Shown here one piece after another: positions 13,380 to 15,914 of a stretch of DNA of 64,000 bases. Positions within the stretch are counted from its first letter, which is position 1. The number at the start of each line of letters is the position of its first letter. Under the pieces are notes generated by a model. It was not told the DNA's origin and did not search any database. It worked only from the letters and a program-made list of their open reading frames with translations. The stretch comes from an uncultured Bdellovibrionales bacterium (lineage in GTDB: Bacteria; Patescibacteriota; Minisyncoccia; Moranbacterales; UBA1568). The translations under genes and the position numbers were made by a program. The stretch covers positions 50,111 through 114,110 of the forward strand of contig CAZIZG010000002.1 in assembly GCA_964543815.1 (NCBI GenBank), in the 5' to 3' direction.

Positions 13380-13435
13380 ACCCTGTGAAATTCCGCCAGA
13401 GGCGAATACTTCGTATCGCGAAGATTTCACAGGGT
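13380..13435. repeat. Palindromic element copy 1: 12-bp perfect inverted repeat ACCCTGTGAAAT…ATTTCACAGGGT with a ~32-nt structured spacer
   Basis: Arms at 13380-13391 and 13424-13435. The right arm contains the TGA stop of the S2P gene. Related copies occur at 25986-26040, 22874-22889 and 14651-14667. Confidence 0.6.
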
Positions 13436-14149
13436 AAACCACAAAAACATCCCTAGAACGGAATTGATAAGGTAACCTATCGGTGCCGAAAAGAAGAATA
13501 TCACGAAAATAAGAAGGAAAAGCCCATACTGCTCGAGCATGAGAATAGTCCGCTCAGAAAGAGGCAGAAGCGTATACAGAATTTTGGATCCATCAAGCGG
13601 TGGAATAGGAAGGAGGTTGAAGCAGGCTAGTACGACATTCCAGAAAATCACCAAAAGAAGAAGTCCGTAGAAAATACTAGGGAACGATCCGGAAAGCGCA
13701 TCAGCCAACAATCTAAAACGCTCCATAAATTCCCCTCGTCCCCCGATAACACCAATAAAGCGACCGAGAATATCTTGTTTCGCCAAAAGGGTCAACGGGA
13801 GAAGATACGCAATAAGTGCGGCGCCAGATGCCAAGAGAAGATTGGAGGCAGGGCCAGCAAGCGCCACCCACGTCGGGCCCCATTTCTGATCTCTTAGGTT
13901 ATATGGGTTGTACGGTACTGGTTTGGCCCACCCAAAAGCAAATCCCGTCGTCACAAAGAGAAGTACCGGGAGCACAATCGAACCAAAGGGATCAATGTGC
14001 TTCATAGGATTCAAATTCAGTCGACCCGCATACTTGGCAGTTAAGTCCCCAAGCCACAAGGCCATCACCCCATGTGACACCTCATGAATAATGACCGAGT
14101 AAATAAGGGTAAGAAGATAAAAGCCGACCAAAACAATTTCGTGTGCCAT
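13427..14149 (-). CDS. Site-2 protease family zinc metallopeptidase (M50), polytopic membrane protein
   Basis: HEVSHG (HExxH) within a TM helix, multiple hydrophobic segments, 240 aa. Confidence 0.8.
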   Translation of the reverse strand: MAHEIVLVGFYLLTLIYSVIIHEVSHGVMALWLGDLTAKYAGRLNLNPMKHIDPFGSIVLPVLLFVTTGFAFGWAKPVPYNPYNLRDQKWGPTWVALAGPASNLLLASGAALIAYLLPLTLLAKQDILGRFIGVIGGRGEFMERFRLLADALSGSFPSIFYGLLLLVIFWNVVLACFNLLPIPPLDGSKILYTLLPLSERTILMLEQYGLFLLIFVIFFFSAPIGYLINSVLGMFLWFTL

Positions 14150-14477
14150 AATTTTCAGAATTCATACGGTTAACTCCAAAACATCCCAGAAGCACTCTTG
14201 CCAAAGAGATACGAATATGATACCGTACCCAAAGTAATATCTCAACCCGCCAGGAGCGCCAAGCGCTTGTCCATGGCAGGAAACCCTAAGTGATATCCTA
14301 TGAGCCGAACTTGTGATTTGACCGGCCGCGGAACCCGCACTGGTAATAAAATCAGTCACTCCAAGCGCCATACCCGTCGTACCTTCGCGGTCAATATTCA
14401 GACCAAGCGTATCGGGGGCATGAAGCTTAAGCTGGCTGCCAAAACGCTCCGCACGCTCGCCAAGAGCACGGCCTAGC

Positions 14478-14518
14478 AAAAAACTAAAAACACCCCCTAT
14501 GAGGGGGTGTTTTTTTCT
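14478..14518 (-). terminator. Intrinsic terminator downstream of tRNA-Pro (bidirectional-looking)
   Basis: Stem CACCCCCT-ATGA-GGGGGTG (plus-strand 14491-14509) flanked by A and T runs. On the minus strand the hairpin is followed by TTTTTAGTTTTTT. Confidence 0.65.
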
Positions 14519-14592
14519 TGTCGGGCTGCCGGGAATCGAACCCGGCCTACATCCACCCCATGGACGCGTACTGCCGATATACTACAGCCCGC
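14519..14592 (-). tRNA. tRNA-Pro (anticodon GGG); CCA not encoded
   Basis: The reverse complement folds as a cloverleaf: T-arm CCGGG-TTCGATT-CCCGG, anticodon arm CGTCC-AUGGGGU-GGATG (U33, GGG, G37), D-arm GTAT/GTAC, and a 7-bp acceptor stem CGGGCTG/CAGCCCG. The exact 5' end is uncertain because there is an extra G upstream. Confidence 0.72.
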
Positions 14593-14620
14593 ATTTGCTT
14601 ATTGAAACAGAAATTTTTAC

Positions 14621-14653
14621 AAATGAAAAGAGGCACCAGTTGGGTGGTGCCCC
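14621..14653 (-). terminator. Intrinsic terminator immediately upstream of tRNA-Pro
   Basis: Minus strand reads GGCACCA-cccaac-UGGUGCC followed by UCUUUUCAUUU. This implies a minus-strand transcript ends here. Confidence 0.55.
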
Positions 14654-15200
14654 TGTGTGATGCCGGACGTTGCCGACTAGTGCTGGATGTTCCAGTTGGT
14701 AATTGAGGTGTCGTCGGGATCGAGCACGAAACGCGCCGCGGGTCTCGTGACAAGCGGAGATGTGGAGGCAACTGGGATAGCCACCCCTTCCTTTTTCTCC
14801 TCTTGGTCCTTCAGTGGTAGCTCGCCTTGGCCGAGGTTACCCTCGGAATTTTGATCAGGCATGTTTGCCTCCTACGTGTGGTAGCGCTTCACCACGGTTG
14901 GCCGACGGGAATCGCCTACGTGGTAACAGAGTTCGATCTGAGCCTGTCCGGAGCGCGGACGCTGAGGCGAAGGGATTGCCCCCGAATTCCGCGTGACGCG
15001 GTCAAGGCCAGTGCGTGATGCCATCCCTGGCATCTGAGATTTCTTGTCGGGCACGAATGTGCCTCCTCAGTTTTAAAACAACTCCACCCGCAAACGAAAT
15101 GCGGGAACCACTTTGGAGCGCGTTTGATGAACGTGCCCCGATAGACATCAGGAGTTTGTGGCTCTCTGATACGCAGCATTATACGCCGCTTTTCCTACTT
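14654..15200 (-). other. Unassigned GC-rich non-coding segment; candidate structured RNA or foreign-DNA remnant (not identified)
   Basis: About 550 nt with no credible ORF. It is GC-richer than the flanking DNA and bounded by intrinsic terminators. The minus strand carries several stable hairpins, two with GNRA tetraloops (CCGAGG-GUAA-CCUCGG near 14835-14850; GAUGCCA-GGGA-UGGCAUC near 15015-15032). Confidence 0.25.
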
Positions 15201-15258
15201 TGTCAACCCTCAAAAAAGCCCTTCTTTTGAGGGAAAAATTCGTATAGAAAAGATACAT

Positions 15259-15298
15259 AAAGAGACTCCCGAGAGAGTCTCTTTATTTTTTATCAGGC
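15259..15298. terminator. Bidirectional intrinsic terminator downstream of ndk
   Basis: Stem AAAGAGACTC-ccgaga-GAGTCTCTTT with a T-run on the plus strand and an A-run upstream. A second hairpin, CCCTCAAAA…TTTTGAGGG, lies at 15207-15235. Confidence 0.55.
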
Positions 15299-15305
15299 TG
15301 TATTT

Positions 15306-15914
15306 CTACTCAAGAATACCGTCGAGGTTTACATCGTAGAGCACCTGCTCCTGTACCAAGCGGTAAGAAATGATATCAGTTGGCTCAAACCAAATCGGGA
15401 TTTCACGTTGAGCCTCCTCCGGACTATCGGAACAGTGAATGAGGTTACGAACCGCCCGATTATCGATACTGGAAAGAGCGTAGGAATCCACCGTCAAATC
15501 ACCACGAATGGTTCCAACATCGGAAGTGGTTGGCTCGGTACCGCCGACAAGTTTTTTAACGATTGCCACTGACTGATTCCCCTCGATAACAGCGGCCAAT
15601 ACTGGGCCAGAAGTAAAAAAATCAACGTTTGATTGGATAATATCTTTGCCATATTCCTTGGCCTCTTTCTCGATTGGCAATCCTTGAGCCGTACGATCAT
15701 CAACGATACGGGTACCTTTTTTCATGAACCACTCATCATCCTTGTTGTAGTGCTTCCAGCACTGATCAGCTTTTGGCAAAAGAAATTTTACGGCCACAAA
15801 CTTGAGTCCAGTGCGCTCAATGCGCCTGAGAATCTCGCCCATAAGTGAACGCTGAATGCCATCAGGCTTCACAATTACTAGGGTCTGTTCTTTCTTCGGG
15901 TGTGCTGCTGCCAT
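15306..15914 (-). CDS. ndk: Nucleoside diphosphate kinase (unusually long, 202 aa)
   Basis: Contains LVIVKPDGIQRSLMGEILRRIERTGL and NLIHCSD (active-site His). About 50 aa of insertion and extension relative to the usual ~140-aa NDK. Confidence 0.85.
   Translation of the reverse strand: MAAAHPKKEQTLVIVKPDGIQRSLMGEILRRIERTGLKFVAVKFLLPKADQCWKHYNKDDEWFMKKGTRIVDDRTAQGLPIEKEAKEYGKDIIQSNVDFFTSGPVLAAVIEGNQSVAIVKKLVGGTEPTTSDVGTIRGDLTVDSYALSSIDNRAVRNLIHCSDSPEEAQREIPIWFEPTDIISYRLVQEQVLYDVNLDGILE

Follow-up and report, generated by a model that had tools for sequence, protein, structure and literature searches.

What occupies the ~1.1 kb between the gene for an S2P/M50 protease and ndk (14149-15306) in a 64-kb stretch of Patescibacteria DNA (contig CAZIZG010000002.1; the whole stretch analysed is called the window hereafter)? 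A preliminary description of this interval had found one confident gene, tRNA-Pro, set between two blocks without open reading frames (ORFs): block 1 (14160-14480) on the protease side and block 2 (14654-15200) on the ndk side. It suggested that these blocks could be one unrecognised structured RNA, two RNAs, or what is left of an island that had integrated at the tRNA. Our analysis indicates instead that the interval is bacterial DNA of an ordinary kind, densely used and divided among four expression units: the S2P promoter, rpmB, tRNA-Pro(GGG) and, in block 2, a minus-strand mRNA of ~550 nt (Table 1). Taken as a whole, we regard this explanation as likely to be correct.

Several parts of the preliminary description were borne out. 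ARAGORN and Rfam confirmed tRNA-Pro between S2P and ndk, and intrinsic terminator hairpins delimit the blocks; a terminator scan returned 9 sites, against 2.0 +/- 1.3 in shuffles. The larger block is indeed GC-rich (0.565-0.60 over 14700-15099, compared with 0.40-0.47 in the flanks). Its minus strand (14625-15172) is more stable than dinucleotide shuffles (z = -2.97), and both hairpins singled out for their GUAA and GGGA loops are present. What did not survive was the view that the blocks are free of genes: rpmB lies in block 1, and two ORFs with Shine-Dalgarno (SD) sequences and homologues, ORF-A and ORF-B, lie in block 2. A scan that equates the lack of a long ORF with non-coding DNA misses both rpmB and the small genes.

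The window belongs to a Candidatus Moraniibacteriota (Patescibacteria/CPR) genome. Related loci were gathered by similarity to ndk. We fetched 80, of which the closest came from metagenome-assembled genomes of Candidatus Moraniibacteriota (ndk identity 96% to L001 and 82-96% to the other close relatives). In ~20 loci, ndk is followed by a gap of 500-1240 nt and then by tRNA-Pro(GGG). Many Moraniibacteriota genomes are syntenic here, with the order ndk, block 2 unit, tRNA-Pro, rpmB, S2P, and the wider order ComEC, ndk, block 2 unit, tRNA-Pro, S2P, S12, S7 was seen in relatives. Public assemblies of the same organism (L207-L210; contigs from ERZ27282978, ERZ27283041, SRR6837564 and SRR6837583) were also included.

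Table 1. Features of the interval and its two neighbouring genes, by position in the window
Feature	Positions	Strand	Basis and remarks
Block 2 promoter, sigma-70 consensus TTGACA-N17-TATAAT	15178-15206	-	Promoter scan; 12/12 consensus matches; predicted start near 15172
Structured 5' leader, four hairpins, ~125 nt	15048-15172	-	Covariance model, RNAalifold, single-sequence folds
P1	15171-15146	-	Loop CACAA nearly invariant; lies 1-2 nt from the inferred 5' end
P2	15139-15115	-	Inner stem varies freely with compensation
P3	15105-15087	-	Inner stem varies freely with compensation
P4	15063-15050	-	3' arm holds the ORF-A GUG start codon and abuts the SD
ORF-A (type 1), 60 aa	14872-15054	-	ORF list, homologues; GTG start, isoelectric point (pI) 10.9, C-terminal GDSRRP
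ORF-B (B2 subtype), 61 aa	14677-14862	-	ORF list, homologues; ATG after GGAGG, pI 4.5, predicted disordered
Hairpin CCGAGG-GUAA-CCUCGG, GNRA loop	14831-14846	-	Fold, alignment; codons 6-11 of ORF-B
3' untranslated region (UTR): small hairpin 14676-14663, then intrinsic terminator stem 14654-14629 and U-tract	14622-14676	-	Terminator scan
Second hairpin just upstream of the block 2 promoter	~15207-15232	-	Sequence
ndk terminator hairpin, terminator-like on both strands	15257-15286	-	13-bp stem; 12-nt arms 100% complementary (I10)
tRNA-Pro, anticodon GGG, intact, CCA not encoded	14520-14591	-	ARAGORN; Rfam RF00005
Bidirectional intrinsic terminator common to tRNA-Pro (-) and rpmB (+)	14486-14514		13-bp stem, T-runs on both strands, arms 100% complementary (I4)
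rpmB, ribosomal protein L28, 58 aa	14300-14476	+	Pfam PF00830
Predicted S2P/M50 promoter, TTGAGA-N17-TATCAT	14217-14245	-	Promoter scan; 10/12 consensus matches
S2P/M50 protease gene	13427-14149	-	ORF list and Pfam scan
ndk	15306-15914	-	ORF list and Pfam scan

The predicted block 2 transcript and its leader

The pattern TTGAC[AT]-N16-18-TATAAT occurs once in the window, as the promoter of block 2. The -35 box, the -10 box and the GC that follows it are kept in L001, L002, L004-L009, L013, L105 and L168. At the other end of the block, the terminator has a 10-bp stem with 6 G-C pairs and the tail TTTTCATTTGT. Its hairpin and the small hairpin preceding it are both kept with compensatory changes in the alignment of relatives, and the 3' UTR region is ~77% identical to relatives by blastn. 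The perfect promoter and the terminator thus delimit an RNA of ~550 nt, and block 2 is one minus-strand mRNA with predicted ends at ~15172 and ~14625. Promoter, leader, two ORFs and terminator come in fixed order, each of them conserved. By blastn, only the promoter and terminator regions of block 2 align with relatives, the interior being too diverged.

The first ~125 nt of this mRNA form a leader in which the architecture is conserved rather than the sequence. Four hairpins, P1 to P4, span it from the 5' end to the start of ORF-A, whose SD (GAGGAGG) lies at 15068-15062. P4 persists in relatives despite a changed second codon, as GGCAC/GUGCC, GGGCG/UGCCC or GCCA/UGGC. A covariance model of the four helices (R1), built from three ungapped sequences (the window, L105 and L201), detected full-length leaders at 17 additional loci (15 not in the seed), each directly downstream of the same promoter (E = 1e-19 to 2e-5). 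R1 matched every locus with this promoter type, including six that were fetched later through the ORF-A and ORF-B proteins.

Compensatory change was then scored on 17 distinct leader sequences, with counts that are to be read as upper estimates. Standard pairs were formed in 90.4% of cells, against 72.8 +/- 1.1% in shuffles (0 of 500 reached the observed value) and 36-44% with slid partners. Twenty-four of 33 pairs were changed on both sides, compared with 13.3 in shuffles, and the covariation score was 0.513, compared with 0.205 in shuffles and ~0.09 with slid partners. RNAalifold recovered the same four helices from the 17-sequence alignment, with a covariation term of -6.25. Independent minimum free energy folds gave the same hairpin layout in 10 of 12 homologous leaders, and z-scores of single-sequence folds ranged from -0.5 to -4.6. 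Taken together, these results establish the leader as a conserved structured cis-acting RNA, with compensatory changes and a fixed position relative to promoter and start codon.

Searches of both strands of block 2 (14654-15200), leader included, against the 4227 families of Rfam 15 with permissive filters gave no match at E <= 10 except for a 14.5-bit chance match over the terminator, in agreement with the initial failure to recognise RNase P, tmRNA or SRP motifs by eye. Eight homologous loci gave no Rfam match at E <= 1. Full-text searching of the literature found no description of the leader motif or of the ORF-A and ORF-B proteins. An empty Rfam search, combined with no conservation or covariation in relatives and no transcription, had been named in advance as a sign of decayed foreign DNA; the Rfam search was empty, yet conservation and covariation are clearly present. 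The idea of an unrecognised structured RNA holds for the leader, a candidate RNA motif absent from Rfam with good covariation, and fails for the two blocks, neither of which is a free-standing non-coding RNA.

In a metagenome scan, 120 stretches matched the pattern GTATAATGCN{12,17}CACAAGCT, but the -35 box and the leader were present at only two of the loci (L105 and L168); the approach was rejected, its pattern being too permissive.

In more distant Moraniibacteriota (L010, L017, L014, L035, L037 and L011), the gap between ndk and tRNA-Pro is without the P1-P4 leader. Four of these loci (L014, L035, L037 and L011) carry ORF-B directly, and the other two (L010 and L017) carry unrelated small ORFs. 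Since ORF-B occurs in these leaderless relatives, it looks like the older component, and the leader and ORF-A slot look like a later addition in one subclade.

Could the leader itself be the functional product? Transcription would then mostly stop, or the RNA be processed, after P3 to leave a small RNA (sRNA) of ~95 nt made of P1, P2 and P3, with read-through into the ORFs conditional in the manner of an attenuator or riboswitch. P3 is G+C-rich and has a U-rich stretch 8-12 nt further on in the window, L105, L201 and L006; the leader is also more conserved than the ORF-A slot downstream, with near-invariant bases in the P1 loop and the J2/3 linker. However, the U-run does not directly follow the P3 stem, is absent in L001, L007 and L009, and P3 was not called by the terminator scan. 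Inspection by eye found no alternative antiterminator pairing, and the leader is without the multi-helix junction typical of ligand-binding aptamers. We therefore consider an sRNA or attenuator unlikely and treat the leader as the 5' part of the block 2 mRNA.

Two small ORFs in mosaic combinations

Behind what is seemingly the strongest promoter of this Patescibacteria stretch sit two small-protein families. ORF-A starts with GTG 7 nt after its SD. Its stop codon, UAG, shares nucleotides with the ORF-B SD (UAGGAGG), an overlap that points to translational coupling. SD and start are retained for both ORFs in every relative, and none of the 17 or more loci has a broken frame. Gene callers in the public assemblies predict both ORFs of the window, with an identical 60-aa product for ORF-A (P0028). 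Uncorrected pairwise ratios of nonsynonymous to synonymous differences (pN/pS) were 0.28-0.83 over all 64 comparisons and 0.28-0.66 in closely related pairs. Both ORFs thus appear to be protein-coding, clearly so for ORF-B and less strongly for the ORF-A of the window, where the case rests mainly on one short motif; their translation is predicted.

That motif is GDSRR[PW], at the C-terminus of the ORF-A product. It is in frame in the homologues P0029-P0032, and it is the only stretch common to the relatives in L004, L006, L168 and P0032, again in frame in all. The GDSRR codons vary at synonymous sites only (GGC/GGU, GAU/GAC, UCC/UCA/UCU, CGU/CGC and CGG/CGA/AGG/CGC). In other genomes, the same slot is filled by an unrelated Cys-rich protein, W.C....NP.C.L......C.N.IR.G.C.R (type 2), or by a third type, M.SLLKLY; neither was detectable in any frame of the window. 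The possibility that type 1, the form in the window, is a frameshifted type 2 was examined and rejected, the type 2 profile being empty in all forward frames of type 1 loci. The hairpin with the GGGA loop (15017-15034) falls inside ORF-A.

For ORF-B, phmmer against 1.84 billion representatives returned only P0026 and P0027 (E = 1e-8 and 4e-6; 56% identity), and the metagenome locus L168 carries a third homologue. All three homologues share the N-terminal EGNLGQGELP and the C-terminal FDPDDxSxTNWNIQ with the protein of the window, and pN/pS for ORF-B was 0.38-0.69. Listing the ORFs in ndk-tRNA-Pro gaps of relatives brought out a wider family, B1, with LTPEQ..RL..VQ.R, then NPNLADTP, then AEHGF. 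The B1 profile found 25 clusters among 5.8 billion proteins, all unnamed and none with a Pfam domain. B1 and B2 have the core D-D-x-x-[IV]-[TN]-N-[WP]-N-[IL] in common, and on this basis we treat ORF-B of the window as the B2 sister subtype, without the AEHGF tail, of a putative Moraniibacteriota small-protein family. A frameshifted B1 copy was rejected as its origin: six-frame hmmsearch showed no B1 motif in any frame.

The two slots are combined freely. ORF-A type 1 occurs with B2 in the window and L168 and with B1 in L004 and L006, and type 2 occurs with B1 in L002, L005 and L105 and with B2 in L201 and L204. Over seven loci, the pI of ORF-A is 7.1-10.9 (8.4-10.9 excluding L001), and that of ORF-B is 4.1-5.0 in six of the seven. 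An AlphaFold2 model of ORF-B from a 27-sequence alignment had a mean local confidence (pLDDT) of 62 and a global score (pTM) of 0.16, with one short helical turn near the C-terminus only; the protein is accordingly predicted by modelling to be disordered. Proline makes up 10% of both products, against a background of 4.2%. An attenuation link to tRNA-Pro through proline codons was considered and discarded, CCC and CCU, the codons read by GGG, being enriched in neither ORF. Predicted examples of tryptic peptides are SGQAQIELCYHVGDSR for ORF-A and FVLDPDDTSITNWNIQH for ORF-B.

Should block 2 rather be seen as a mainly non-coding structured RNA of ~550 nt, or an sRNA, in which the ORFs are incidental and their apparent conservation is one of nucleotides or structure? 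The block as a whole folds better than shuffles, it is conserved at both ends and divergent between them, unrelated sequences fill the ORF-A slot in different genomes, and ORF-B is predicted to be disordered. In addition, the GNRA hairpin within ORF-B is kept in L168, L201, L204, L002, L011 and L105 with GUAA or GCAA loops, and its compensatory change from GAGG/CCUC to GAGA/UCUC alters an amino acid (G to S). On the other hand, the motifs FDPDDxSxTNWNIQ, GDSRRP and NPNLADT...AEHGF persist where blastn cannot align the nucleotides, the differences are found at synonymous positions, and all 64 pairs have a pN/pS below 1. The starts, SDs and intact frames described above speak the same way, as does the absence of an Rfam family match. 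It is this codon-type conservation that makes a purely non-coding RNA quite improbable.

How might a two-gene mRNA with such a leader work? P1, at the extreme 5' end, may protect the message from 5'-end-dependent decay. P4 would limit or regulate initiation at ORF-A, possibly with the aid of P2, P3 or a factor recognising the invariant CACAA loop of P1. ORF-B would be translationally coupled to ORF-A, and the two products may act as a pair of short-linear-motif proteins. The ORF-A slot, filled by three or more unrelated types, and the slot of ORF-B, with two subtypes, may have been reshuffled by recombination between lineages. A bolder version is that the leader represents a new class of cis-regulatory RNA, its CACAA loop bound by a protein or small molecule, that controls a Moraniibacteriota-specific, recombining two-slot module of a basic and an acidic short-linear-motif protein; we offer this version tentatively and think it rather doubtful. 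If it were true, the shuffling of alleles would be the pattern expected of a toxin/antidote-like, self/non-self or host-interaction system in episymbiotic ultra-small bacteria.

Several points weigh against our account of block 2. The transcription start, the efficiency of the terminator and the translation of the unit are all predictions. The leader alignment was fitted to the model and its sequences are related, so that the covariation counts are inflated; moreover, three simple hairpins in a row, with no multi-helix junction, are not necessarily a ligand-binding structure. ORF-A type 1 has the backing of no more than five protein clusters and a single short motif, and its pN/pS of 0.57-0.75 is weak evidence, the alignments being poor and pS saturated. 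The C-terminal motif of ORF-B is common to only three close relatives, and a B1 profile built without the window does not recognise ORF-B of the window (E = 1.7, with only the N-terminal 17 residues aligned). Finally, neither ORF has a match in Pfam, NCBIfam, PADLOC, PHROGs or PDB sequences, which leaves no hint of function.

Both small-protein families are uncharacterised and restricted to one Patescibacteria lineage, the Moraniibacteriota. Genomes of Patescibacteria are tiny and hold little spare DNA, and a conserved module that is predicted to be highly expressed is therefore a reasonable target for metatranscriptomics and proteomics. The structured-leader small-protein operon is a lineage-restricted curiosity and not the answer to a long-standing question.

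rpmB, tRNA-Pro and the flanking genes

On the other side of tRNA-Pro, block 1 holds rpmB. Its ORF starts with ATG, the encoded protein begins MSRTCDLTGRGTRTGNKISHSKRH, and residues 3-55 match positions 1-59/60 of the PF00830 Ribosomal_L28 profile (E = 2.8e-15; 56.5 bits, cut-off 27). The region 14295-14520 shows 72-87% nucleotide identity in more than 15 Moraniibacteriota loci by blastn. The preliminary description had considered only a minus-strand ORF there; that ORF, of 105 codons with a TTG start, had rightly been called not credible, as it runs antisense to rpmB. Public gene calls in L207-L210 annotate this spurious 105-aa ORF (14162-14479, minus strand) and miss rpmB. Compared with ordinary L28 genes, rpmB has nothing unusual: it matches the full profile and lies near the translation genes S12, S7, EF-G and EF-Tu. 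It is short, has no obvious SD, and converges on tRNA-Pro with a terminator in common.

tRNA-Pro(GGG) scored 49 bits against RF00005 (cut-off 29; E = 4e-9), is the sole tRNA in the window by ARAGORN, and is 93-96% identical to the tRNA of relatives by blastn. Rfam cmscan in gathering mode returned 0 matches over the whole window, although tRNA-Pro reached this score in E-value mode on a 1.4-kb region; a null from gathering-mode cmscan should not be over-trusted. The predicted S2P promoter lies in a block of 29 nt with 93-96% identity in L003 and L006, and its counterpart in L009 (51 nt) has 88% identity (blastn).

The ndk product has 202 aa, a length kept in relatives, and matches the NDK Pfam domain in two stretches, the best covering residues 86-180 on profile positions 50-134. 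NDK proteins are typically ~140-150 aa long; the greater length here points to an insertion within the protein or to an extension at its N-terminus.

The tRNA-Pro gene of the window is uninterrupted. In several relatives, it is split directly after G37 of the anticodon loop (37/38), at the approximate positions L005:1500-1920, L006:4820-5110, L007:6170-6440 and L009:6145-6420. The inserts measure a few hundred nt and carry a second, complete tRNA-Pro(GGG), with the outer 3' half downstream; L005 has three such levels, one nested in the next. The flanks of the inserts complement each other (..CGGGAAUUU.. / ..AAAUUCCCYG..), and pairing of the CCC with the anticodon would also be possible. Outer copies have small hairpin inserts in the D arm and the T arm. 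Introns of group I have been described in tRNA genes of Patescibacteria (PMC13011429), in a text where "tRNA-Pro", "tRNAPro" and "nested" do not occur, and Rfam found no group I intron at the interrupted genes of L005, L006 and L009. The insert could be a tRNA-hosting intron or a small tRNA-Pro-targeting element that brings its own copy. Between tRNA-Pro and rpmB, L004, L006, L010, L013 and L020 have 1-2.7 kb of extra DNA, which makes the region 3' of tRNA-Pro look like a hot spot for insertions in this lineage.

Two repeats connect the tRNA with block 2. The exact 13-nt direct repeat TTTCTTGTCGGGC (D6) occurs at 14514-14526, in the 3' end and trailer of tRNA-Pro, and at 15040-15052, in the first codons of ORF-A. 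A weaker similarity of 15 nt (D5) links the T-arm (14524-14538) to the GDSRRP codons (14900-14914). We judged the 13-nt repeat coincidental.

That block 2 is decayed foreign DNA, an island or prophage integrated at tRNA-Pro as the preliminary description had suggested, is very improbable: the block adjoins a tRNA, exceeds its flanks in GC, is highly divergent inside between species, shares the 13-nt repeat with the tRNA 3' end and lies at a locus clearly hit by insertions in relatives, but it sits upstream of the tRNA 5' end whereas islands integrate at the 3' end, and its synteny in many species, at the same place and with the same promoter and terminator, largely refutes the idea. Neither an integrase nor any other mobile-element gene was found, similarity to phages or plasmids was absent, and there were no PHROG or PADLOC matches and no meaningful tRNA-derived flanking repeats in the window. 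By our own estimate, 2.6 kb should contain ~0.05 chance 13-mer repeats, and the second copy encodes the conserved Met-Pro-Asp-Lys-Lys with which ORF-A opens. Stems, together with codons for disordered proteins rich in Pro, Gly, Arg and Ala, account for the GC excess.

Comparison with known systems

Block 2 resembles ROOL and GOLLD, large ornate RNAs whose genes often neighbour those of tRNAs, and the housekeeping RNase P, tmRNA, SRP and 6S RNAs in its size of ~0.5 kb, its tRNA neighbour, its many hairpins and its GNRA loops. It differs from them in that most of it shows codon-type conservation and that cmscan gave no match; each of these identities was rejected, with no Rfam or ARAGORN match.

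The leader is closer to 5'-terminal stem-loops that stabilise messages and to leaders that sequester the start codon, of which the ompA 5' UTR stem-loop and the ROSE and fourU RNA thermometers are examples. P1 likewise lies 1-2 nt from the predicted 5' end, and P4 likewise pairs the start codon and abuts the SD. Unlike the ompA, ROSE and fourU types, it has no Rfam similarity, its four-hairpin layout and invariant CACAA loop are specific to the clade, and regulation is only predicted.

The ORF pair recalls type II toxin-antitoxin operons, with two adjacent and probably coupled genes of ~60 aa, a basic and an acidic product, and mosaic partners across strains. Neither product has homology to toxin-antitoxin or defence families, both are shorter than typical toxins, and ORF-B is disordered in the model. 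Unlike such operons, the locus keeps its place by synteny and looks core-like, not mobile, and its very strong, constitutive-looking promoter and long leader are atypical there.

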